Source: Nitrospinota bacterium (lineage in GTDB: Bacteria > UBA8248). Taken from it: a stretch of DNA of 64,000 bases. Position numbers and translations under genes: made by a program. Location of the stretch: positions 126,812 to 190,811 of the forward strand of contig JAZAHK010000006.1 in the NCBI GenBank assembly GCA_036231405.1, read 5' to 3'. This document shows, one piece after another, positions 1-32,043 of the stretch (position 1 is its first letter; every line of letters starts with the position of its first letter). The notes beneath the pieces were generated by a model, which searched no databases, was not told the DNA's origin, and saw only the letters and a list, made by a program, of their open reading frames with translations.

Positions 1-2103
1 ATATCTAGCAAAATCGGGGGTTAAAACTTTTCCCTGATCGACTTCTACTTCTTCTATAAGAGCCTGACCTATCCCCATTTCTATACCACCTTGAATTTGC
101 GCAATAACACCTTGAGGATTAATAGCACGACCAACGTCGTGAGCTGCGGTAACACTCATAACCCAAACTTCCCCCGTTTCAGGATTTACTTTCACATCTG
201 CAACCTGTACCCCATAGCTATAAACCATGAAAGGATCGCCCTTGCCAGTTTCTGGATCAAATGTGAGAGGTCCAGTAGAAAACCATCCGTGACCATTAAT
301 CTGCTTACCTAGGAATAGAGCTCTCTTCACCACTTCTCCAAAATTAACAAAACGATTTGGTGTGCTCTTAATAAATATTTTTCCACCTTGAAAAGACATA
401 TCATCTAATGAACACTCAAGCATATCAGCAGCAACAGGAGCAAGTATCTCTCGAATTTCCAAAATCGCTTGGCAAATTGCGTTGCCTGGAATGGTGGTTG
501 ACCGGGAACCTGCCGTGAAACCACTTTCAGGCATAGCATCAGTATCAACAGGCATCATCCTCACATCTTCAAAATTCACCCCCAAAGCTTCTGCAGCAAT
601 TTGTGCTAGAACAGTGTTAGATCCTTGTCCAAGTTCTATAATTCCCACACTAACTTGTACTTTTCCATCATCTGTAACATGGACTTGCGCACCGCATGAA
701 TCAGAAGGACCTGCAGCACCAGTAGAATACCAAAACCCAGCCACTCCTCTCCCGTACAAAAATCCATCTTCTCTTAATTTATTTTTCCTAGGGTGATCAG
801 GAAGAGATTTTTCTGCTTCATCTAAACAAGAGATAAAACCTACACTTTGTTTTAAAATCTGGCTAGTTCCGGTTTTTGAACCAACACGGAACCCATTAAT
901 TCTCCTTAGTTCAAAAGGGTCTATCTCTACTTTTTTAGCCAGTTCATCCATTTGAGATTCTATTGCAAAGTGAACTTGAGGAACACCTAAACCTCGCATC
1001 GCACAAGTATTAATGCTATTGGTGAAAATCATAAATCCATCAACTTTTATGTTTTCACATTCATAAGCACCAGGAGAGTGAATAATTAATTTCTTTAAAA
1101 TTCCGGGCCCTACTGCAGTATAGGGTCCCTTATTTAAGTATATTTTTATTTCCATAGCTACAATTTTTCCATTTTTTTTCGCACCAATTTTATGGTGTAT
1201 AACTGCTGGAACTCTTTTAGCTTTAGCACCAAGTGATTCTTCTCTACTGTAGTTATATATAACTGGTCGTCCAGTTTTTAGAGCAACAAGTCCTGCACGC
1301 ATTGCTATTTCTATAGAGGTTTCTTCTTTTCCGCCAAAACCTCCTCCAGGCTGTGTAGATATAAACTGAATTTCATTTTGACCAAGACCCAGTACTGGTG
1401 AAATTACCCTCCTTACCATGTGAGGACATTGGGTAGGTCCGGTACAAGTTATACTTCCATCAGGGTTAGGAATGACATACCCCGCATCTGGTTCGAGATA
1501 GGCATGATCTATCATTTGGGTTTGAAATGAATTTTCTATAACTACATCTGCGTTTGCAAAACCTTCCTCTATGCATCCCTTCCTTATTTTATAATGCGCA
1601 AGTACATTCTCTTTTGCAATAGGATGATTTTCGTGAATTTTTGGAGATGTTTTTTTCATAGCTTCAAGAGGATCAAAAACCGCAGGAAGATCCGTAAAAG
1701 TAAGTTTTACGAGGGAAACCGCAATTTCTGCTTCCTCAATCGATTCCGCCGCTACTAACGCCACGACATCCTGTAATGAATGATATCTATCTTCAACCAA
1801 AACAGGCTGATCTTTTGCCATCATTCCATATTTTTTTTCACCTGGAATATCTTTAGCAGTTAAAATGGAGACAACACCTTTAGAATTAATAGCCTTAGAA
1901 ATATTAATTTTTTTTAAAATACCATTCGGCGTAGGAGATAATACAGGCGCGACATAAAGAGGATTCATTACTTTATGATCAGCTGAAAAAACAGGAGATC
2001 CATCTGCTTTTGGTGGAGCATCTACTCGAAGAATATTTTTCCCTACAATACTACCTCCATCATCAGAACTGCCAAAAAGTTCCTGATAAAATCTCTCCGA
2101 CAT
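1..2103 (-). CDS. Xanthine dehydrogenase/aldehyde oxidase family molybdopterin-binding large subunit (5' portion; gene continues beyond window start)
   Basis: The reverse complement from 2103 reads MSERFYQELFGSSDDGGSIVGKNILRVDAPPKADGSPVF, which is typical of the N-terminus of CoxL/XdhA-type Mo-hydroxylases. The frame stays open to position 1, in phase (2103 nt = 701 codons). It was not in the ORF track because the ORF is not closed inside the window. Confidence 0.7.
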   Translation of the reverse strand, partial: MSERFYQELFGSSDDGGSIVGKNILRVDAPPKADGSPVFSADHKVMNPLYVAPVLSPTPNGILKKINISKAINSKGVVSILTAKDIPGEKKYGMMAKDQPVLVEDRYHSLQDVVALVAAESIEEAEIAVSLVKLTFTDLPAVFDPLEAMKKTSPKIHENHPIAKENVLAHYKIRKGCIEEGFANADVVIENSFQTQMIDHAYLEPDAGYVIPNPDGSITCTGPTQCPHMVRRVISPVLGLGQNEIQFISTQPGGGFGGKEETSIEIAMRAGLVALKTGRPVIYNYSREESLGAKAKRVPAVIHHKIGAKKNGKIVAMEIKIYLNKGPYTAVGPGILKKLIIHSPGAYECENIKVDGFMIFTNSINTCAMRGLGVPQVHFAIESQMDELAKKVEIDPFELRRINGFRVGSKTGTSQILKQSVGFISCLDEAEKSLPDHPRKNKLREDGFLYGRGVAGFWYSTGAAGPSDSCGAQVHVTDDGKVQVSVGIIELGQGSNTVLAQIAAEALGVNFEDVRMMPVDTDAMPESGFTAGSRSTTIPGNAICQAILEIREILAPVAADMLECSLDDMSFQGGKIFIKSTPNRFVNFGEVVKRALFLGKQINGHGWFSTGPLTFDPETGKGDPFMVYSYGVQVADVKVNPETGEVWVMSVTAAHDVGRAINPQGVIAQIQGGIEMGIGQALIEEVEVDQGKVLTPDFARY

Positions 2104-4347: not shown

Positions 4348-5367
4348 TCAAACAATTTGCTTCTTTTTAAGTTCAAAAACTTTTGACAAAAGTTCATATG
4401 TCTTTAAACGTGCTTCAAAAGAGTGCAGTGTATTAACAATAACAAATTCATCTACCTCACATTTCCTAGATAAGTCTAATAACTTATCTTTAACTTGCTC
4501 TGGGTTCCCGATAATAGTCCTCCTTCTTATACTATCAGCAAAATTACGTTCTAACTCGCTCCAGTCATAAGAAAGAGACTCTTCAGGAGTTGGGACACCC
4601 CCACCTTCACCTCGTCTACTCTTAAGCATCATCAATGGCCTACTTTCAGCTAAATACTTAGCTTCCTCCTCGCTCTCAGCACAGACCACAAAAACGGCTA
4701 CACTCCCCAAAGGTTCTTTTTTATCTGTAGAGGGTTTAAAGTTCTTTTTATAATAACCTATTACCTCTGATACTCCGTTACCACTTATAAAATGCGCAAA
4801 ACAAAAAGGAATACCAAAATGGGAAGCAATAATTGCACCCTGATCTGATGAACCTAAAAGCCATATTTGAGGAACGCTTTCTCCTGATGGCATAGCGACA
4901 ACTTTTCTAAACGGATGTTCCTCATGATGTACTCCAGATAACCAGCATCTTAGATCTCTTACTTTCTGAGGAAATCTATCTACGTTAAAATCTTCAGAGC
5001 TCAGAGATAATGCGGAAGAAGTTATGCGATCTGCGCCTGGAGCACGCCCTAATCCTAGATCTATCCTTCCTGGATAGATGGATTCAAGAACTCTAAAATT
5101 CTCTGCAACTTTCAATGGGCTATGATGACTCAGCATAACTCCTCCAGAACCAACACGAATTGTAGATGTTATAGAAGCCAACTGCCCAACAAGGATTTCG
5201 GGAGAGGTTCCTGCAAACATTGGATGGCTATGATGTTCTGCTACCCAGAAACGATAATAACCCAATTTTTCAGTTTTCTTAGCAAGAATCAATGTCTCAT
5301 TAATGGCGTCAGAAGGCGAACACCCCTTACGAATTGGAGATTGATCTAAAACACTTAAACGTATCAT
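4348..5367 (-). CDS. LLM class flavin-dependent oxidoreductase (YhbW/MsnO8-like)
   Basis: 339-aa ORF with FWVAEHHSHP and IDLGLGRAPGAD motifs characteristic of luciferase-like monooxygenase family proteins. Confidence 0.7.
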   Translation of the reverse strand: MIRLSVLDQSPIRKGCSPSDAINETLILAKKTEKLGYYRFWVAEHHSHPMFAGTSPEILVGQLASITSTIRVGSGGVMLSHHSPLKVAENFRVLESIYPGRIDLGLGRAPGADRITSSALSLSSEDFNVDRFPQKVRDLRCWLSGVHHEEHPFRKVVAMPSGESVPQIWLLGSSDQGAIIASHFGIPFCFAHFISGNGVSEVIGYYKKNFKPSTDKKEPLGSVAVFVVCAESEEEAKYLAESRPLMMLKSRRGEGGGVPTPEESLSYDWSELERNFADSIRRRTIIGNPEQVKDKLLDLSRKCEVDEFVIVNTLHSFEARLKTYELLSKVFELKKKQIV

Positions 5368-5382
5368 TTTAATGCTCTCTTC

Positions 5383-6030
5383 CTAAGGAGATTTTTCTGG
5401 GCGAATTTCTATGAAACTTTTCACATCGACTACATCCATAATTCCACAAATAACACGAATCATTTTCATTTTATTTTCTAAACTATACGCCTCTCCTATG
5501 AGGTAAACTTTACCTTCTATAGATCTCCAATGTATGTTGAATACAGATGAATTGCCCAAACCAATGAGTCTTATTCTTATCGTTTGTTCTATTAAAAAAT
5601 CATCAAACTTTGAGCGGGGATTTTGAACATCTACATAATTTTCACCTCTTTTACACTCTCCTCCTACCATAACATTAAAATTTTGCTTTTTTGCATAAGA
5701 AATTTCATTGAATAACTTTTTCACGTTAGGATAATTCAACACGTATTCTTCAACCTTCCTGTACATTAAAAAATCATCGATTCTTCCCGTGAGAAGAACT
5801 TTCCGATTCCATACATCTATATTTACTTCAAAAAGAGTATCAGGTTCCAAACTTATTAAACCTGACACGATTCCTGTGTGCATAGAAAAATCGAAAATTT
5901 GCTCATCATGTTTTCTATCTTCGATAATTTTTTCCGCTAACCCTACAAAAGCATATTGACAACCAGCAAGGGAAACAAAAAAAGAGAGAAAAATAATTTT
6001 ATAAAAAGAAGAATCCATTCTAGTTTCCAA
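5383..6030 (-). CDS. BON domain-containing lipoprotein (OsmY/DolP-like)
   Basis: Signal peptide with an LAGC lipobox, followed by two segments with the BON pattern (hydrophobic-x-V, then LxG with hydrophobic flanks). Confidence 0.55.
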   Translation of the reverse strand: METRMDSSFYKIIFLSFFVSLAGCQYAFVGLAEKIIEDRKHDEQIFDFSMHTGIVSGLISLEPDTLFEVNIDVWNRKVLLTGRIDDFLMYRKVEEYVLNYPNVKKLFNEISYAKKQNFNVMVGGECKRGENYVDVQNPRSKFDDFLIEQTIRIRLIGLGNSSVFNIHWRSIEGKVYLIGEAYSLENKMKMIRVICGIMDVVDVKSFIEIRPEKSP

Positions 6031-6344
6031 TTTCGTAAGATAAGAATAATTACATTTAGCTTGACCCTTAAGTTAAAACCTGTTGCATATCAAAATCAAA
6101 AGCGTCAATATACATGAAATTATTTTATTCATAAAATGGATACAATGCATGACTTTAGGAAAAGATGGATTCCAAAAAGTTTGGAAAAACCTTTTTAATC
6201 AATCTCTTGATGAAAAGTCACTTTCCGGCATCGAAAAGATATTAAGTGACTCAGTCGAATCTGAGAAAAAAATATCAGATATAATTTCTTCTGATATCGA
6301 ACCAATGCACAAAATTTCATTTCAACATTCTCATGGACGAGAGA

Positions 6345-7760
6345 ATGCAAAAGATAACTAATTTTTCTGCTTTTCATATTGTTTCCTCGATTAAAAAAAA
6401 GGAAATTTCTGCAATAGAGGTATCTGAAGCTTTTCTCGAAAGATGTAAATCTATAGGGGAAAAGCTCAACACTTGGATAGCTTTAGATGAAGAAACAATT
6501 CTAAATCGCGCTAATGAAATTGATAAACTTTTAAAAGATGGAAAGGATCCTGGCCCCTTATGTGGAGTTCCTATAGGGATTAAAGATCTCATTGATATGG
6601 AGAATTTTCCAACTACTTCGGGGAGCTTAATTGAAAAAGACAGTTTCGCAAATTCTGATTCTACAATTGTTTCAAAATTAAAAAATGCAGGTGCAAATAT
6701 ATTTGGAAAACTAAATCTTCATGAATTTGCTTTTGGACCAACCGGACTAAATCCGCACTATGGGGACCAGAAAAATCCATGGGACCCTAAACATATGACC
6801 GGGGGATCAAGTGGAGGTTCAGGAAACAGTGTTGTTACTTCGCAAGTCCCTATTTCCATCGGTTCTGATACGGGCGGTTCGATTCGTATCCCATCATCAC
6901 TCTGTGGTTCTTTCGGTCTCAAACCAACTTTAGGATTAGTGAGCAAATTTCGCTGCATGCCTTTGTCATGGTCGCTTGACACCTTAGGTCCACTTTCAAT
7001 GTCAATCGAAGATTGTTCTCTCTTTATGTCAGTTGTTTCTGGATTCGATCCTCAGGATCCATATTCTATTCATTCTGATCATATTGATTTTAATGGAAAG
7101 TTAAAAAAGAATGATTTACAAAAAACAAGAGTAGGCCACGCAAGAAGTTTTTATGAGAAAAACACAGATAAAGTGATTTCATCCAGAATAAACGAAATTG
7201 CCCAACAAATATCAAAACTAGGAGTTGAAGTTATAGAAATCGATATTCCTGAACTTGACATTGCATACGATGCATGCACCTCTATTATGGTGTCAGAGGC
7301 GGCTGCAGTGCACGAAAAGAGGATTCGTCATTTTGCATCAAAATATGACCCGCAGGTTATAGAAAGGATTAAACCAGGGTTTTTCGTACCCGCAACCTCT
7401 TACATTCAATCGCAAAGATTTAGGGGAGAATGGTCTCAAAAAATAACAAATGAAATTTTTGCAAAAGTAGATGCAATTTTAGCTCCTACAACACCAATCG
7501 CAGCTCCTTTAAGAAGTGAACATAGTGTTTTCTTAAATGGGGAAAAAAAAGAGACAAGAGGATTACTCATCTCTTTAACAAGAATTTGGAATTTCTATGG
7601 CGGACCTTCCGTTTCTATGCCAATTGGAAAAACAGAGCAAGGCCTTCCATTTGGCGCTCAACTGATGGGGCGAATCCTCGAAGATGACAAACTACTAGGG
7701 TTAGCATATAATTTAGAAAAAGAAAAAATTTGTGAGGCAGAAAGAATTTCCGAACTGTAG
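6345..7760 (+). CDS. Amidase (amidase-signature family)
   Basis: Carries the GGSSGGS amidase signature and a GVPIGIKDLI segment. The ATG at 6345 is preceded by GAGAG; the ORF track uses an ATG 12 nt upstream. The gene ends in TAG at 7758-7760. Confidence 0.75.
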   Translation: MQKITNFSAFHIVSSIKKKEISAIEVSEAFLERCKSIGEKLNTWIALDEETILNRANEIDKLLKDGKDPGPLCGVPIGIKDLIDMENFPTTSGSLIEKDSFANSDSTIVSKLKNAGANIFGKLNLHEFAFGPTGLNPHYGDQKNPWDPKHMTGGSSGGSGNSVVTSQVPISIGSDTGGSIRIPSSLCGSFGLKPTLGLVSKFRCMPLSWSLDTLGPLSMSIEDCSLFMSVVSGFDPQDPYSIHSDHIDFNGKLKKNDLQKTRVGHARSFYEKNTDKVISSRINEIAQQISKLGVEVIEIDIPELDIAYDACTSIMVSEAAAVHEKRIRHFASKYDPQVIERIKPGFFVPATSYIQSQRFRGEWSQKITNEIFAKVDAILAPTTPIAAPLRSEHSVFLNGEKKETRGLLISLTRIWNFYGGPSVSMPIGKTEQGLPFGAQLMGRILEDDKLLGLAYNLEKEKICEAERISEL

Positions 7761-13237: not shown

Positions 13238-14128
13238 TTAGCTCCCTGAACTGACCATGAGGGCTCCTGCAATTGCAATTACAGCACCTAGAATTACTTG
13301 AAAAGATAGGCGTTCAATTTTTTTAAAGAACAACCAAGAAACAAAAATCACAAAAACCAAAGAAAGTCTTCTTATGGGAAATACTTCAACAATATTTCCA
13401 TTCTTAATACTTGTCCAAAATGTTAACCCTGTCATTATATTAAATAAACCCGCTAGAGACATAGTGATTACGGCTTTTTTGTGCCAAGAAAAACTTATGA
13501 AATTTTCTTCCTTTTTCCCTAAGAATATTGAAACAAAACATTGACAAATGATCGCAGCACATGATGCGATTGCAATTCCCAAAGATGCACAAGGAATATA
13601 TGAAAAAGCTAGTTTTCTAAAGGTTGGAGAAAAAGAGAAAAACATCGCACTTATAACCGGCAGGAAATAATAAAATGATTTTGCAATTTTATTTTTCCCT
13701 CTAGCTTCATGGACCAAAATCATCCCGCCGAAAACAACTAGTATTGTCCCTATGGCAATCGAAGTATTAAGTTTTTCTCCAATGAATAAAATTGCAACTA
13801 TAGAAGACCAAATAGGAGCTGTTTGATAAAGAGTCTGGGTCCTTGCAAGACCAATTTTTGAATACGAAATATTATTAAAATGCCGCGCTATAAACTGTGC
13901 AAAAAGACCAGATAACGAAAAGAAAAGTACTCCTTTAAAAGACAGTTCATAATATCTCCCTTCTAAAAGGTAAACGGCGAATGCAAGACAACCGACAACA
14001 AAATTGGCCGCAACAGTTACCTCTTCTGGCCTTAAAAAACGAACCGCCTGTCTGTAGAAACTCTGTGCTATAGACAACAACATCGCAGAAATGAGAGCCA
14101 ATAGATTTGGATGGATCAAATCTAACAA
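13238..14128 (-). CDS. DMT/EamA family transporter
   Basis: 296-aa polytopic membrane protein with duplicated five-TM halves typical of EamA. Confidence 0.55.
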   Translation of the reverse strand: MLDLIHPNLLALISAMLLSIAQSFYRQAVRFLRPEEVTVAANFVVGCLAFAVYLLEGRYYELSFKGVLFFSLSGLFAQFIARHFNNISYSKIGLARTQTLYQTAPIWSSIVAILFIGEKLNTSIAIGTILVVFGGMILVHEARGKNKIAKSFYYFLPVISAMFFSFSPTFRKLAFSYIPCASLGIAIASCAAIICQCFVSIFLGKKEENFISFSWHKKAVITMSLAGLFNIMTGLTFWTSIKNGNIVEVFPIRRLSLVFVIFVSWLFFKKIERLSFQVILGAVIAIAGALMVSSGS

Positions 14129-14143
14129 AGGAAACCTTTCTAA

Positions 14144-14983
14144 TCAAAAAGAAAGAATTAAAACCGCGAGAATTGCAGATAAAATTCCTAAACCCTTTTT
14201 CAAAGATAAGTGCTCTTTAAAAAAAAGAATGGATAAAAAACCGGTAAACACAAAGCTTAGTTGGGCTATTGGTGTCACTACGATGGCTTCACCATACACC
14301 AACGCAACTGAAAGTGAAAGATAACTAGCATAAGTCAAAATTCCACATAGAAATGGGAGGGTAAGCGATAACTTTTTTTTAGGAAATTTTTCACGGCACA
14401 TAAAAACATATGGAATAGTTAGTGAAAAAACTCCAAAAGTTTGTGCAGCTATCATTCCAGAAGGAAGTGCTCCAAAGCGTAAACTTAATTTAATAAAGAA
14501 TCCTATTAGACCAAACAGACACATCGATAAAAAGGCATAATAAAAAGAAGTCTTTTCGCTAGACAGAAAAGACTTATCGATTCCAACACTCAAAATTGAA
14601 ATAACACACAAAAAAATTGCAAGAGTCTTGTAAAGACTTAAACTTTCACCTAAAAAAACTATTGCTAAGAGAGAGGTGACAATAAAATTCAGCCTTATAA
14701 TCGTAACTATTGAAATTGCTCCGCTGTTTTTTAGAGCAAATAGGACAAACAAAAATGCGGTAAAGGCCAAAAATCCATTTAAAAAACCTAAAAGTAAAAA
14801 ATTATTCCAAATCAATTCTTCTCTAAAGTAAGCCACTCCAAACGCTGCAGGTAAAAAGGAAAAGTTTTGAAATAACATAAAAGTGGACGGCTTTACCTCC
14901 CACTTGTTTGATAGTTTGTATAAAAAATCGCTACATCCAAGAGAAAACAATGAAAAAAGGGCAAAAAAGATCTCTGGGTTCAA
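14144..14983 (-). CDS. DMT/EamA-like membrane protein
   Basis: 279-aa polytopic membrane protein, 15 nt upstream of the other EamA gene on the same strand. Confidence 0.45.
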   Translation of the reverse strand: MNPEIFFALFSLFSLGCSDFLYKLSNKWEVKPSTFMLFQNFSFLPAAFGVAYFREELIWNNFLLLGFLNGFLAFTAFLFVLFALKNSGAISIVTIIRLNFIVTSLLAIVFLGESLSLYKTLAIFLCVISILSVGIDKSFLSSEKTSFYYAFLSMCLFGLIGFFIKLSLRFGALPSGMIAAQTFGVFSLTIPYVFMCREKFPKKKLSLTLPFLCGILTYASYLSLSVALVYGEAIVVTPIAQLSFVFTGFLSILFFKEHLSLKKGLGILSAILAVLILSF

Positions 14984-15136
14984 GTTATTACTCCTATAAT
15001 AAATAAAAAAATAGGAACAAATTCACTAGAAAATAATTCATGATTGATATAAAACAATCTAGGTTTTAAGAAAACTTAATATGCTATATTTATCATTAAT
15101 ACTAAGTTAAACAACTCATAAATCCTAGGGGTATAA

Positions 15137-26228: not shown

Positions 26229-27278
26229 CTAAAAAGATTTAAGCTTTTCTCTAGCCTTTTTAGAGGCATCTGAAGAAGGGAACCTTATAATAAGTCTTGA
26301 CAACAATTCTCTCGCACTCGCCCTATCACCAAAATTCAAGTAAGACATTGCTTCATAAAAAATAGAATCAGGCACCATATCCCCCTTTGGATAGTCTACT
26401 TGTACCTTACTGAAACCTAGAATAGCTTGTTCAAAACTTTTTTTAATATAAAAAATCTTCCCGATCCAAAATTGGGCATCATCAGAAAGAGTGTGATTAG
26501 GATATTTATTCAAGAAATTCTCGAAAAGAACACGTGAACTGTTTAAACTCTTACCGTAACGATAGAATCGGACAGCATTCTTAAATTCGATCTCTGCTTG
26601 AGAAAGTGTTTTTTTAGCTGAGACAATTTTCGAGTTATTTTTTTTTGCCACACTACCGATTTTTTTATTTAAAACTAAAGATTTCCCAACAGGAGCAAGT
26701 TTCTGATCTGGTTGACCAACTAGAAGGGATTCTCTCTTTCCATTTTTGTTTAAAGAACCTTTATATCCATAGGGTATTTTTTGTTTTAAGATTTTTGTCA
26801 GTTTTTGTTTCATTTCTTTCAACTCACTTAACAAAATTTCATTTTTTTTCTTTAGAAATAAAATATCATCTGCCAGTTTCTTTTCTCTTTTTTTTGTTTC
26901 ATTTTTATATTCAATAAAATCCCTTTTGAACGAATGCAAGGATTCAGATAATCTTTTTGACTCTTTTTTCTGATTTTTACTTAAACTATTTACATTTTCT
27001 TTTATTTTAAAAATTTCTTGATTTTTGGAAAAAGAATCTGATTCCGAACGAATTAATTTTGATAGTGACGAATCGATTGGAAGTACATTTTTTTTTAATC
27101 TAATTTTTTTCTGTACTGCTATTTCTGGCCCTACCTTCTTTTTCTTAGGAATTAAGGTTTCTCCGACAACTGGGGAACTTAATTGAAACCCAGGCTCGTC
27201 ACACCCTGCCATGAGAACGCAAAGAGAAGTCAAATATAGTATTGATTTTAAGTAATTATAAGGATAGAAATTCATCAT
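26229..27278 (-). CDS. cpoB: Tol-Pal system protein YbgF/CpoB (signal peptide, long coiled coil, C-terminal TPR)
   Basis: Lies last in the tolQRAB-pal order. The C-terminal TPR-like region and a Lys/Glu-rich coiled coil are present. Confidence 0.7.
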   Translation of the reverse strand: MMNFYPYNYLKSILYLTSLCVLMAGCDEPGFQLSSPVVGETLIPKKKKVGPEIAVQKKIRLKKNVLPIDSSLSKLIRSESDSFSKNQEIFKIKENVNSLSKNQKKESKRLSESLHSFKRDFIEYKNETKKREKKLADDILFLKKKNEILLSELKEMKQKLTKILKQKIPYGYKGSLNKNGKRESLLVGQPDQKLAPVGKSLVLNKKIGSVAKKNNSKIVSAKKTLSQAEIEFKNAVRFYRYGKSLNSSRVLFENFLNKYPNHTLSDDAQFWIGKIFYIKKSFEQAILGFSKVQVDYPKGDMVPDSIFYEAMSYLNFGDRASARELLSRLIIRFPSSDASKKAREKLKSF

Positions 27279-27339: not shown

Positions 27340-28008
27340 TTAATTTAAACCAGAAGGTATTCCACCAATAACATTGGATTTCGCTCGACGATTCTTCGAC
27401 CAGGCAGACTCATCGTGTCCTGAATCAGCTGGACGTTCCTCTCCATAACTAACCGTGTCTATTCTTGATGCATCAACACCAAGAGAAACTAGATAATCCT
27501 TTACAGCCTGAGAACGACGATGTCCTAGTGCAATATTATACTCAACAGTACCTCTTTCGTCGCAATGACCTTCTATCTGTACAAGCAGGGTGGGGTTATT
27601 TTCCATAAAACGTGCATTCGTATCTAAAATTGAACGCATTGCAGGCTTTATGTCCGACTTATCAAAATCAAAATAAATAGGGGAATCCTCAAATCTTGCT
27701 AAATCTTTTTTAAAACCAGAACGTCTAGCCTCACGCTCGTTTTCAGGCATACTTCCACTACTTCCACTACTTCCACTACTTCCACTACTTCCACTACTTC
27801 CACTACTTCCACCTTCGGAGCCTCTCATTTTGGTCTTCATAGAGGAAGCGGAACTTGAACCATCAGAGGTCTTCTTTGCAAGATCTTCAGATGCACAGCC
27901 AACGAAAAATAAGAAAGCAGCTAAGACTACAAAAAACGGAAAACGAGAAACAGAATAAATCGAGTACATAATACCCCCTTGCAGTCCCCCAATTAAATAT
28001 GTAACCAC
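27340..28008 (-). CDS. pal: Peptidoglycan-associated lipoprotein Pal (OmpA family) with (SGS)n linker
   Basis: Has a lipobox (VGCAS), the OmpA_C motif [12 protein letters not shown], and sits directly after tolB. Confidence 0.85.
27751..27813. repeat. Perfect 9-bp tandem repeat (ACTTCCACT x6 plus one variant copy), encoding (SGS)n inside pal
   Basis: Read directly from the sequence; it is a coding VNTR that preserves the frame. Confidence 0.9.
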
Positions 28009-28116: not shown

Positions 28117-29463
28117 TTATCGAGGTAATGGCGCCCAATCTGGTTCTTGACCAGGTTGTAGTTTCTTTAACTGTGTTCCTGAATCAGTCATAGTATAAAC
28201 ATACTTTCTGCCTTCACGATCAGATGAAAATGCAATATGTCTTCCATTGGGAGACCAAGTTGGAGACTCATTTCTTCCTTGACTACCAGTGAGTCTTCTC
28301 ACACCAGAACCATCCGGGTTCATTGTAACGATATCAATTTCTTTACCCCTTTTAACTCTACCAGTATAAGCAATTTTATCTCCCTTAGGACTCCAAACAG
28401 GTTCTGTATTATAATTGCCACTAAAAGTGATTCTATTTAAATTAGTTCCATCAGAATTCATCACATAAATATGAGGATTCCCATGTCGACTACTATTGAA
28501 AACAATTTTTCTCCCATCTGGTGAATAAGAAGGGGAAACATCAATTCCCCAACTATTCGTTAATCTTCTCTTGATTCTTCTAAATAGATCGTAACGAACT
28601 AGCTCATAATTAGGACGTCTTTTCCCAATTAACTGGGAATATATAAAAAACCTACTTGTAGGATTCGCAGGTGAGAAAGATCCACCAATTGCCTGAGCCT
28701 TCCTAGAACTGACTCGTAACTGTCTTCCTCCATTAGTTGGAATTAAAAAAACTCCTGGAGGATTTGTTTTAAAGGATGAAAAAGCCAACCACTTGCCATC
28801 CGGGGACCAAGAAGGTGCATTATTACCCCTCCGATTTCTTGTAATCCTCCTCAGATTAGTACCATTCCAATTCATAATAAATATAACACCCTTTTCTTCT
28901 ATTGAACGTCTAGATACAAATGCTATTTCTGTATCAAATATCCCCTTATCTCCCGTAAACCTTTCATAAACTTCATTTGCAAAACGATGGGCTATAGAAC
29001 GCCAATTGCTTATACTATCTTGCTTGTACCATTTATTTAATATGCTTCTTTTACGAAAAACATCGAAAAGGCTGAAATTGACTCTAATTCTTTTGCCTTT
29101 TATACGAACAGAACCTTTAACTAGTGATTGCACTTTAATAATTTTTTCCCAATTACGAAACTTTAAACATCTCTTTTCTATGCATTGTCTTGAAGGACTT
29201 TCTAGATAACCTTTTCGGTCTGGTATATAAAAAAGACCCGTTCTTTCTAAATCTTCTTGAACGAGTTCTGAAATTTTCAACCCAATGTTGTTTTTTCGAT
29301 AATTCATAGGTTTTAATTCAGAAATTGCTATACGAATCTTACGAACTCTAGAAGAAAAAATATCTAAATACACACGTTTTTTCGCGTAACACTCAGATGT
29401 AAAAAAATGAAAATAAGAAAATGTAAAAAAGACAATTAGACAAAAAAGAAGTAATTTTTTCAT
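28117..29463 (-). CDS. tolB: Tol-Pal system beta-propeller protein TolB
   Basis: Repeated PSWSPDG, PSYSPDG and PTWSPNG blades follow a TolB_N-like N-terminal region; the ORF is 448 aa. Confidence 0.9.
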   Translation of the reverse strand: MKKLLLFCLIVFFTFSYFHFFTSECYAKKRVYLDIFSSRVRKIRIAISELKPMNYRKNNIGLKISELVQEDLERTGLFYIPDRKGYLESPSRQCIEKRCLKFRNWEKIIKVQSLVKGSVRIKGKRIRVNFSLFDVFRKRSILNKWYKQDSISNWRSIAHRFANEVYERFTGDKGIFDTEIAFVSRRSIEEKGVIFIMNWNGTNLRRITRNRRGNNAPSWSPDGKWLAFSSFKTNPPGVFLIPTNGGRQLRVSSRKAQAIGGSFSPANPTSRFFIYSQLIGKRRPNYELVRYDLFRRIKRRLTNSWGIDVSPSYSPDGRKIVFNSSRHGNPHIYVMNSDGTNLNRITFSGNYNTEPVWSPKGDKIAYTGRVKRGKEIDIVTMNPDGSGVRRLTGSQGRNESPTWSPNGRHIAFSSDREGRKYVYTMTDSGTQLKKLQPGQEPDWAPLPR

Positions 29464-29490: not shown

Positions 29491-29796
29491 TTAATCTTTA
29501 CAAAAACCTGTTCCACAAAAACGAAAACCAGTCGGAATCATTTTATCTTTAATAGTCTCTGGAAACTTCGGGACAAGCGGGTCAAAAGCACGAAGAATAG
29601 CATTTTTTGCAGATAGATCATACGTCTTATTTCCACTTGATTTTTTTATTCTAAGCTTACGATAACGACCATTTCTATAAATATCTACGTCAAATGTAAC
29701 TCTAAGTGATGAAATTCCTGGAATAGGTGGAAATTCGGTAAAACTACTAATTCTAGATGTTAAAACTCCATAATATCTTTCTATAGCAGAGTTCAA
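29491..29796 (-). CDS. tolA: TolA C-terminal (TonB_C-like) domain ORF, in frame with the upstream tolA segment across a TAG
   Basis: Contains LRVTFDVDIYRNGRYRKLRIKKSSGNKTYDLSAKNAILRA, TonB/TolA domain III-like. The open frame extends upstream through a Gly-rich linker to the TAG at 29944-29946. Confidence 0.6.
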   Translation of the reverse strand: MNSAIERYYGVLTSRISSFTEFPPIPGISSLRVTFDVDIYRNGRYRKLRIKKSSGNKTYDLSAKNAILRAFDPLVPKFPETIKDKMIPTGFRFCGTGFCKD

Positions 29797-29943
29797 ATTC
29801 CCGATACCACCAGTTCTCGGTTGTTTACTTCCGCCGCCCTGTCCATCTCCTCCCCCTTCTCCTAGATATCCAACCTTTGGCCGAATTGGAGAGGACTTTC
29901 CATCAGAAGTTTTGCCTATTTTTTCACTCTGCTCAAATTTAAA

Positions 29944-30654
29944 CTATTTTGATTTTTTTGTATTTTTTTTCTCATTTCTTATTCTCTTCAGATATTTCTT
30001 CCTATAGGCTTGATATCTTTTTTGACCGGAATTTACTTTCTTCTTTATTCTTCTACGTTTCTTCTTCTTTCTAATTCGTTTCTTCTTTCTAATTGGTTTA
30101 CGTTTCTTCTTCTTTCTGATTCGTTTCTTCTTTGTAATTGGTTTACGTTTTTCTGAAAGAGCTTGAATCTTCTTTTTAGTTTTAATTTTTTTCAGACTTT
30201 TTACTTCAATTTTTTTGACTTTCTTTTTTTTCACAGGAGAGATAACTCTCACCTTTTCTTTATTTTTTGTTATCCGTTTGGTGAGAGTTTTTCGATTTCT
30301 CTTGAAAACAGTCTTCTTGACTAATGGTTTTTCTATCTCAATTTTTTTTTGTTTAACCGGAATAATATCGCCTGATTTTCCCTTCGCAGAACCTCCTGGT
30401 ATTTCGTCCGCCCCTATAAGGCTGACGGCAGTTCCACTTCCGTAAAAACGATATTCTGTTTCAGTGCTAAATATAAAAACCCACAAAAAAATGACTATAT
30501 GTATTAAAAAAGATGATAGAAAAGAAATTCTAAAGGAAAACTTCTTATAGATTTGATCCTCGTTTGAGGTTACAAGCTGACTTCTCTCCGATTGGATGAA
30601 CGAATCTTTCGGGCTTTCATTATCAGGGTCTTTTATTGGAAGGATTTCACTCAT
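29944..30654 (-). CDS. tolA: TolA N-terminal segment (TM anchor plus Lys-rich helical domain II), ending at an in-frame TAG
   Basis: TM helix FLSSFLIHIVIFLWVFIF followed by a highly basic repeat region. It occupies the tolA position between tolR and tolB. Confidence 0.6.
   Translation of the reverse strand: MSEILPIKDPDNESPKDSFIQSERSQLVTSNEDQIYKKFSFRISFLSSFLIHIVIFLWVFIFSTETEYRFYGSGTAVSLIGADEIPGGSAKGKSGDIIPVKQKKIEIEKPLVKKTVFKRNRKTLTKRITKNKEKVRVISPVKKKKVKKIEVKSLKKIKTKKKIQALSEKRKPITKKKRIRKKKKRKPIRKKKRIRKKKKRRRIKKKVNSGQKRYQAYRKKYLKRIRNEKKNTKKSK
30055..30144. repeat. Two near-identical 45-bp tandem units (plus a partial third) inside tolA, encoding KRKPIxKKKRIRKKK repeats
   Basis: Units 30055-30099 and 30100-30144 differ at 2 positions. 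Confidence 0.8.
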
Positions 30655-30687: not shown

Positions 30688-31122
30688 TTATTTTCTAGAT
30701 TTTTTCCTTTGCGGAGGCTCAGTTACCATACTTATTTTTTTTATCCCAGAAGACCGTATCAAATCCATTACGATCATGACATTTCCATAAGAAATTATTC
30801 TGTCAGCCCTTAAAAAGATTTCTTTTTTACTTCTCGAGGCAAATAAAATCTCTAGTTTCTTTTTTAACTCTGGTTGAGGAATTTCATTGTCATTTAGATA
30901 TACGATTCCTTGTTTATCAATAGAAACAATTACAGCTGTCTCTGTCATATTCGCTTTTTGTCCAGTCTTCACCTGAGGCAAATTCAAATTTATAGATTCA
31001 TTTTTCGTTTCCAAAAGTGGTGCCGTAACCATAAAAATAACTAAAAGCACCAACATAACATCAACTAGTGGGGTAACATTGATGTCAGACAGAGTAGAAT
31101 TTTTATTCAGATTAATCGCCAA
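30688..31122 (-). CDS. tolR: Biopolymer transport protein TolR (ExbD family)
   Basis: Contains INVTPLVDVMLVLLVIFMV and is 144 aa. Confidence 0.85.
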   Translation of the reverse strand: MAINLNKNSTLSDINVTPLVDVMLVLLVIFMVTAPLLETKNESINLNLPQVKTGQKANMTETAVIVSIDKQGIVYLNDNEIPQPELKKKLEILFASRSKKEIFLRADRIISYGNVMIVMDLIRSSGIKKISMVTEPPQRKKSRK

Positions 31123-31146: not shown

Positions 31147-31830
31147 CTAAAAATGTCTTTGAACTAGATTTAAAAAATCAGAAATAAAATTTTCCATCTC
31201 ATTGGTAATAACTTTAATACGATTTTGGTAGTGATTATAAGCAATTACAGCTGGAATCGCAGCAGCTAAGCCCAATGCAGTTGCAACAAGTGCTTCGCTA
31301 ATTCCTGGAGCTACAACAGCCAATCCAGCTGAACCCTGAAGCCCAATATCTCGAAAAGCATTCATAATTCCCCATACCGTACCAAAAAGACCTATAAATG
31401 GAGTTGCACTCGCTGTGGTGGCAAGAAAGGTAAGTAGTCTCTCAAGATTTCCAATTTGTTGATTTGCTGAGCGGTGAAGCGCGCGTTCTACACTTTCGAT
31501 ACCACTTAATTCAAAAGATCCACCACTGGATAGACCATTTTCCGTATCCTCTTTGCTAGAATCCATTAATTGTTTGGTTTGACGAAATCCAGCTAGAAAA
31601 ACCTCTCCAACCGGACTATCAGAAAAATCCTTAAAGGATTCATAAAGTTGATTTAAAGATTGAGACTTCCAAAAATAATCTAAGAATTCATAGGAAAGCG
31701 ATTTCGCTCTCCTCAACTCAAAATATTTCCAAATTATGATTGACCAAGAAGTAAGCGAAAAAAATAAAAGAATAAGCAAAACAAAAAAAACGACACCACC
31801 AGAACCAATCGCATGGCTTAAAAAATCCAT
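31147..31830 (-). CDS. tolQ: Tol-Pal system protein TolQ (MotA/TolQ/ExbB proton channel)
   Basis: Three-TM ExbB-like protein. The ATG at 31830 (MDFLSH) is preceded by GGTGATGGA; the ORF track start at 31929 adds 33 residues with no homology. Confidence 0.8.
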   Translation of the reverse strand: MDFLSHAIGSGGVVFFVLLILLFFSLTSWSIIIWKYFELRRAKSLSYEFLDYFWKSQSLNQLYESFKDFSDSPVGEVFLAGFRQTKQLMDSSKEDTENGLSSGGSFELSGIESVERALHRSANQQIGNLERLLTFLATTASATPFIGLFGTVWGIMNAFRDIGLQGSAGLAVVAPGISEALVATALGLAAAIPAVIAYNHYQNRIKVITNEMENFISDFLNLVQRHF

Positions 31831-32043
31831 TCCATCACCACTAGAACCCGTAACCGATTTATTTATTACTGTAGATGCATAAAGAAAGTTCATTAGATTT
31901 AAAAACATCCTTAAAGGCAGAGGAACCAAGTATTACCCAATTTTTAGACTACAGTCAATACAAACGATTTAATGATAAATAATTGACAGAAAAGATACTC
32001 GACATGGATAATGGTATCTGCATTTTGGAGGATTTCAAAAATT

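Follow-up and report, generated by a model that had tools for sequence, protein, structure and literature searches.

We analyzed a 64,000-nucleotide stretch of a Nitrospinota bacterium (GTDB lineage Bacteria; UBA8248; GenBank assembly GCA_036231405.1, contig JAZAHK010000006.1, positions 126,812 to 190,811 of the forward strand), hereafter called the window, and found that the tolA gene of its Tol-Pal cluster is interrupted by a single in-frame amber codon (TAG). With a probability of roughly 0.55, we interpret the locus as an ordinary tolA from a marine, Nitrospinaceae-like member of the Nitrospinota in which a recent, lineage-specific nonsense codon has arisen. The closest relatives are uninterrupted at this site, so the split is not conserved. 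The sequence past the TAG is nearly identical to that of the closest relative and retains an intact Gly-rich motif and domain III, suggesting that the lesion is recent.

Direct reading and translation showed that an open reading frame (ORF) of 236 codons starts at ATG 30654 on the minus strand (30654..29947) and is closed by the TAG at 29944-29946. Past the TAG, the same frame runs through 150 sense codons (29943..29494, minus strand) to a TAA at 29491-29493. An earlier note on this DNA, made from the letters alone, had described exactly this arrangement. There is no frameshift in the window tolA, and the one stop is its sole lesion compared with intact orthologues. The hypothetical read-through product has 388 residues, in agreement with the length of about 388 amino acids given before. 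The stretch after the TAG encodes GEGGGDGQGGGS followed by a TonB_2 domain (PF13103, 37 bits with a cut-off of 22, E 3.7e-9), which, together with the Foldseek matches to TolAIII described below, bears out the Gly-rich linker and TonB_C/TolA-III-like C-terminus proposed from the letters. It aligns over its whole length with intact orthologues, and a chance origin of an open stretch of 150 codons in DNA of 34% GC is very unlikely (~1e-5 by a rough estimate).

The earliest canonical in-frame start past the TAG is TTG 29796, which lies 50 codons downstream, as had been computed, and translation from there leaves out the invariant Gly-rich motif. By sequence inspection, no hydrophobic N-terminus was found in the post-TAG piece, whether it begins at FKFEQSEKIGKTSDG... 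or at MNSAIERYYG.... NCBI carries the window tolA, which belongs to a metagenome-assembled genome, as two proteins from one contig of 247,998 bp (VX794_02860 and MED5578950.1). The TAG is equivalent to residue 231 of P0001, the protein of the closest relative, and is located two residues beyond the end of the domain II helix. The site falls in a poorly conserved, disordered linker with a predicted local distance difference test score (pLDDT) below 50 in the structural model of P0001.

The closest relatives encode TolA in one piece. P0001 (94% protein identity, 381 amino acids), which is encoded by the contigs L001 (JGI) and L002 (ENA), is uninterrupted, and so is P0075 (381 amino acids). P0002 to P0005 are intact as well, with lengths of 363–374 amino acids, and several of them were found on many contigs. 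L001 and the window share 96.8% DNA identity over 4.4 kb. In the DNA alignment, ACG (Thr) takes the place of the TAG in L001, L002, L003, and L041, and the gene of P0075 likewise has ACG. More distant relatives carry either CAA for Gln (L034 and L035) or GCA for Ala (L037 and L038, which belong to the P0004 lineage). Compared to ACG, TAG requires two adjacent base changes, and four substitutions lie within 15 nt at the stop (relatives ACGTTTAAATTGGCG, window TAGTTTAAATTTGAG). Two adjacent bases changed within a cluster of four substitutions are unlike an isolated base-call error. Multi-base codon replacements are common in tolA between the window and L001 (e.g., ACT/CCC, ATA/GTT, and ACA/GTC). 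Homopolymer slippage (phase variation) was ruled out for the window lesion, which is a substitution and not a length change in a simple repeat; changes of +/-1 in A7-A11 runs were seen in relatives, on low-coverage contigs.

Over the 450 nt past the TAG, the window differs from L001 at 4 positions (0.9%), compared to ~3.3% for the locus. One of these differences is synonymous and three are conservative or in the linker, and with so few differences a dN/dS ratio past the stop is uninformative. The divergence of tolA from L001 was uneven, being 6.9% in the 5' half (indel included) and 0.9% in the domain III half, with 3.4% in tolB, and this pattern within tolA could result from strong constraint or recent recombination. 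Compared with L001 and L002, domain II of the window gene is also longer by 18 nt (6 amino acids), an in-frame difference that lies within an imperfect tandem repeat.

If the nonsense allele is real, ribosomes would terminate at the tolA TAG as at the other TAG codons of the genome. A 236-residue TolA fragment would result, made up of anchor and helical domain II, and it would probably still dock to TolQ-TolR through the Ser/His transmembrane helix. Without domain III, the fragment would make no contact with the N-terminus of TolB at the outer membrane, which is the part of TolB that binds TolA domain III (PMC8928145). The domain III part lacks a start near the TAG, a signal peptide, and an anchor, and translation from TTG 29796 would not bring it into the periplasm. 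As assembled, the genotype would amount to a tolA domain-III null, for which weaker outer-membrane integrity would be expected. No tolA or tonB paralogue that could compensate was found in the window.

Other interruptions of tolA were found in the same clade. In the closest-relative group (94–97% DNA identity to the window), six assemblies were found. L001, L002, and the contig encoding P0075 are intact, while the window (TAG) and the contigs L003 and L041 (TGA) have a nonsense codon in the same disordered linker. As judged from these sequences, the three interrupted assemblies represent two independent events. In L003, which is ~94% identical to the window in DNA, the codon at the TAG site is ACG, and an in-frame TGA (CCA -> TGA) occurs at L003:86-88. 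The TGA of L003 and L041 corresponds to window positions 29887-29889, 19 codons downstream of the window TAG. A second change in both contigs, CCG -> GTG, is equivalent to window positions 29818-29820 and lies 23 codons past the TGA. Gene callers begin a 109-amino-acid ORF at this GTG, which has a Shine-Dalgarno (SD)-like GGAAG 7 nt upstream. Both changes are common to L003 (JGI) and L041 (an ENA contig with 1.8x coverage), and the two contigs differ at three internal positions per kb, indicating that they were built from different reads. Given the independent TGA of the sister strain, nonsense alleles in the tolA linker appear to occur in nature. Their recurrence rests on low-coverage contigs.

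In sister lineages, we found C-terminal-only tolA ORFs (P0072, P0073, P0107, P0111, and P0112) and N-terminal tolA fragments (P0008, P0083, P0086, and P0088). The C-terminal-only ORFs were considered as evidence of a real split and rejected, because they were explained by 1-nt indels at A-runs of the Lys-rich domain (L034, L037, L038, L042, and L043) or by chimeras and junctions in low-coverage ENA contigs (L039, L040, and L045). We regard the A-run and junction lesions in these lineages as mostly technical; those at A-runs may be either real slippage or homopolymer error. Homopolymer runs of 7 or more occur at 6.9 per kb in tolA and 2.5 per kb in the window, a density 2.7 times higher. The tolA gene is an error-prone target in the assemblies of this clade, and its short public contigs call for caution. 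The interruptions among relatives differ in position and kind, and no split position is conserved. The earlier note had named a conserved two-gene architecture in relatives as the sign of a real split; the orthologue alignments, in which the closest relatives are uninterrupted, ruled this architecture out.

Of the three options that had been raised for the window TAG, suppression received no support, whereas a recent nonsense mutation and an assembly or base-call error both remain. An error is a possible, less probable explanation. The true codon would encode an amino acid and differ from TAG by one base (AAG, CAG, GAG, TCG, TGG, TTG, or TAY), or variants of different strains would have been stitched together, and tolA would be intact in vivo. 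Several observations that weigh against a real nonsense allele speak for such an artefact. The TAG allele is a singleton, as its 236-amino-acid product forms a cluster of one and is on no other contig in the collection. Exact look-ups of this product and of the window TolR found no other copy, and a scan of genome contigs for the TAG allele did not reach the species of the window, the closest locus being 62% identical. A pattern scan of metagenome contigs returned only L003, with ACG, and was uninformative because it also missed the JGI contig L001, which matches the pattern. The perfect conservation downstream of the TAG suits a consensus error equally well. The surroundings are A-rich and of low complexity, with the high density of homopolymer runs given above, and related low-coverage assemblies have many artefactual tolA lesions, plainly so in the chimeras L039, L040, and L045. 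Some relatives have Gln (CAA) at the site, and a change of CAG to TAG in this strain would take a single C-to-T change. Given the general importance of the Tol-Pal system for outer-membrane integrity (PMC8928145), a free-living cell would not be expected to carry a domain-III null.

Nevertheless, we lean towards a real allele over an artefact. The lesion is a two-base substitution rather than a homopolymer indel, it is linked to two more nearby changes in the substitution cluster, and the contig that holds it is 248 kb long, with tolA the one broken gene of the 64-kb window. De Bruijn assemblers join only k-mers found in reads, which, by the principle of such assemblers, argues against an artefact. 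The independent nonsense allele of the sister strain, present in two assemblies, points in the same direction.

A leaky stop, with near-cognate decoding or a suppressor tRNA elsewhere in the genome providing a low level of full-length TolA, is unlikely. The allele would then be nearly neutral, affecting a residue in a variable linker. This would fit a site that tolerates Thr, Gln, or Ala in a segment of pLDDT < 50, an intact domain III, and a second strain that tolerates TGA in the same linker. However, TAG is a normal terminator in this genome. It closes 9 of the 54 long open frames in the window, tolA included, among them the ORF ending at 7758-7760, which had already been cited as evidence of genuine TAG stops. 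The TAG-T context of the tolA stop is shared by three other genes of the window, including tolQ of the same operon, and true TAG gene ends are followed by a ribosome binding site and a start codon. From termination studies in Escherichia coli, a stop codon followed by U is not known as a leaky context. A suppressor tRNA had been proposed as something to look for, and ARAGORN found no tRNA gene in the 64-kb window. No Rfam element was matched, and the fold of the RNA comprising the stop and the next 115 nt was not more stable than those of shuffled sequences (z = 0.07). The stop is also absent from the orthologues, which have ACG, CAA, or GCA. Normal TAG termination, together with the lack of a tRNA in the window, an Rfam match, or downstream structure, led us to reject genome-wide reassignment or suppression of TAG. 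Programmed readthrough is without support, and low-level, non-programmed leakiness is possible.

We consider it highly improbable that tolA functions here as two genes, one for an anchor-plus-helix protein and one for a separately translated domain III protein. NCBI annotates two proteins, and in L003 and L041 the TGA is paired with the new GTG, its SD-like sequence, and the called 109-amino-acid ORF, as would be expected of such an arrangement. Against it, no relative shares the split in position or kind, and the first start available in the window (TTG 29796, 50 codons on) drops the invariant Gly-rich motif. The C-terminal piece, without a signal peptide or anchor, would have no access to periplasmic TolB and Pal, given the biology of TolA-III and TolB (PMC8928145). 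A broader reading, that natural populations of this marine Nitrospinaceae clade repeatedly lose the part of TolA beyond the domain II-III boundary, is rather doubtful. It draws on the two independent nonsense alleles (TAG and TGA) in three of the six closest-group assemblies and on the poly-A +/-1 slippage in sister lineages. If these lesions are real, selection could favour the loss or silencing of domain III.

The assignment of the gene as a putative TolA of a divergent clade is based on synteny and architecture. An AlphaFold model was built for P0001 (94% identical to the window protein) with 30 homologues. It contains a transmembrane helix at residues 39-65 (pLDDT ~92) and a single long helix spanning 145-229 (pLDDT 91-97); residues 230-280 are disordered (pLDDT ~40) and precede an alpha/beta domain at 284-373. 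The best Foldseek matches of domain III were TolAIII of Pseudomonas aeruginosa (6s3w and 1lr0, probability 1.00), and TolA III of E. coli and Vibrio cholerae (1s62 and 4g7x) and TonB C-terminal domains ranked next. A family profile search also reached 6s3w and 1lr0 (E ~7e-4), and the C-terminal piece by itself had no match when the PDB was searched by sequence. The NCBIfam equivalog TIGR02794 (tolA_full) scored the C-terminal piece at 25.7 bits, below its cut-off of 59.45, and was matched at E <= 0.01 by 28 of the 30 homologues (best 2.3e-21). P0001 to P0005 hold all three domains in one polypeptide, whereas the window tolA does not.

In the transmembrane helix, S48, H52, and S63 have the spacing of the SHLS pattern defined for TolA (S-x3-H-x6-L-x3-S; PMC8928145), with V59 at the Leu position. 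S48 and H52 are invariant among the aligned family members. Two further motifs are nearly invariant in the 30 Nitrospinota-type TolA homologues, RFYGSGTAVSL.GADEIPGGSA.GKSGD after the anchor and GY.GEGGGDGQGGGS before domain III, and both have low AlphaFold confidence. To our knowledge, neither of these clade motifs is a feature of E. coli TolA.

The window gene resembles TolA of E. coli, P. aeruginosa, and V. cholerae in its position between tolR and tolB, the Ser-x3-His transmembrane helix, the long Lys-rich helix, and the TolAIII fold. It differs from them in the TAG between domains II and III, the TIGR02794 score below the cut-off, the clade motifs, and the Val in place of the SHLS Leu. 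Domain II is a single helix in the P0001 model, compared to a helical hairpin proposed for E. coli TolA. Strains of E. coli vary in the repeat copy number of tolA, with altered susceptibility to detergent and filamentous phages (Zhou, Michiels & Aertsen 2012, PMC3477136). The 18-nt in-frame indel between the window and its closest relative, in the tandem repeat of domain II, is of a similar kind. However, the E. coli variation is in frame and leaves TolA functional, whereas the stop codon here lies outside the repeat. Like programmed recoding, such as pyrrolysine at UAG or suppressor tRNAs, the locus has an in-frame UAG and a conserved downstream domain, but orthologues lack the stop, TAG terminates genes normally in this genome, and the window yielded neither a recoding element nor a tRNA.

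A nonsense-interrupted gene in a draft genome is a known kind of case. As in other nonsense pseudogenes and split annotations in draft genomes and metagenome-assembled genomes, there is a single lesion, the halves are annotated separately, and there is no secondary decay. The present case differs in that a core envelope gene is affected and that a sister strain carries another, independent nonsense codon at a distance of 19 codons, and only the recurring nonsense alleles in the linker have the potential for novelty. For annotation, VX794_02860 (236 amino acids) and MED5578950.1 (101 amino acids) are the halves of one tolA, and the internal stop should be flagged. The finding has no bearing on the genetic code or on recoding. 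A real domain-III null in an abundant lineage of marine nitrite oxidisers would mean that Tol-Pal is dispensable in some strains or that there is selection against domain III, for example by phages or bacteriocins. Domain III is the entry point for filamentous phages and group A colicins in E. coli and Vibrio, and its loss would also remove this entry point. The Foldseek matches 2x9a, 4g7x, and 3qdr are complexes of this kind.

Table 1 Coordinates of the interrupted tolA and its neighbours in the window, and of tolA lesions on contigs of relatives.
Feature	Sequence	Position	Strand	Details
tolA 5' ORF	Window	29944..30654	-	236 codons + TAG; domain I (membrane anchor) and domain II (Lys-rich helix); NCBI hypothetical protein VX794_02860; P0006 100% identical
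Transmembrane helix, residues 39-63	Window	30466..30540	-	Hydrophobic FRISFLSSFLIHIVIFLWVFIFS; SHLS-like S48, H52, V59, S63
Periplasmic motif RFYGSGTAVSLIGADEIPGGSAKGKSGD, residues 69-96	Window	30367..30450	-	Clade-specific, nearly invariant alignment columns
Domain II, Lys/Arg-rich long helix, ~residues 145-236	Window	29947..30222	-	AlphaFold helix 145-229, pLDDT > 90
Imperfect tandem repeat inside domain II	Window	30037-30156	-	Tandem Repeats Finder periods 18/24/45; KKKRIRKKKKRKPIR-type units
Amber codon TAG, codon 237	Window	29944-29946	-	In frame
tolA 3' part	Window	29494..29943	-	150 sense codons: disordered linker, Gly-rich motif, domain III; TAA 29491-29493
Gly-rich motif GYLGEGGGDGQGGGS upstream of domain III	Window	29827..29871	-	Invariant columns, 30 homologues
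Domain III (TonB_2 / TolA-III fold)	Window	29518..29781	-	PF13103, residues 55-142 of the 150-amino-acid piece; Foldseek
101-amino-acid ORF from TTG 29796	Window	29491..29796	-	NCBI MED5578950.1, "TonB C-terminal domain-containing protein"; without signal peptide or membrane anchor
tolQ	Window	31147..31929	-	PF01618 MotA_ExbB, 120 bits; listed ORF of 260 amino acids from TTG; ends with TAG, then T
tolR, 144 amino acids	Window	30688..31122	-	PF02472 ExbD, 99 bits
tolB, 448 amino acids	Window	28117..29463	-	TolB_N and PD40 repeats
pal, OmpA-family lipoprotein	Window	27340..28008	-	PF00691, 80 bits
cpoB/ybgF-like TPR protein	Window	26229..27278	-	TPR_6 and YfiO matches; stop is TAG
A-run indel	L034	~815-830		A9 to A10, 1-nt indel
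A-run indel	L037	~365-375		+1 at the same A8 run as in L043
A-run indel	L043	~2245		-1 at the same A8 run as in L037
A-run indel	L042	~1283		1-nt indel at A11 run
Base loss	L038	~1470		G lost beside A-run
Junction	L039	1-340		tolA joined to unrelated DNA
Junction	L040	1-75		tolA joined to unrelated DNA
Chimera	L045	1-1099		240-bp AT-rich tolA piece between high-GC foreign sequence, 1.7x coverage
Broken neighbour	L044			tolB also broken (split)

The gene order of the cluster is tolQ-tolR-[tolA]-tolB-pal-cpoB, and relatives show the same order. The Pfam matches of the neighbours, which follow in this order, agree with the view of the earlier note that tolQ, tolR, tolB, pal, and cpoB are intact. 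Judging from the called gene of L001, which has 248 amino acids, the true start of tolQ may be more internal than the listed TTG. In Pal, a low-complexity (GSS)n linker joins the lipoprotein signal region to the OmpA domain.

In the 64-kb window, tolA is the sole internally interrupted gene. Four more pairs of adjacent ORFs in the same frame were considered as split genes and rejected, as each consists of complete, independent genes: two EamA transporters, an SLT gene with AnmK, an amidohydrolase gene with that of a TPR protein, and a pair at 4348-6072. The EamA-family transporters are arranged in tandem (13238-15022, minus strand) in the same frame with one TGA between them and look like a split gene; both EamA domains are present in each copy. 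In the pair at 4348-6072, an SD-like sequence and the ATG of the second gene come after the TAG at 5383-5385.

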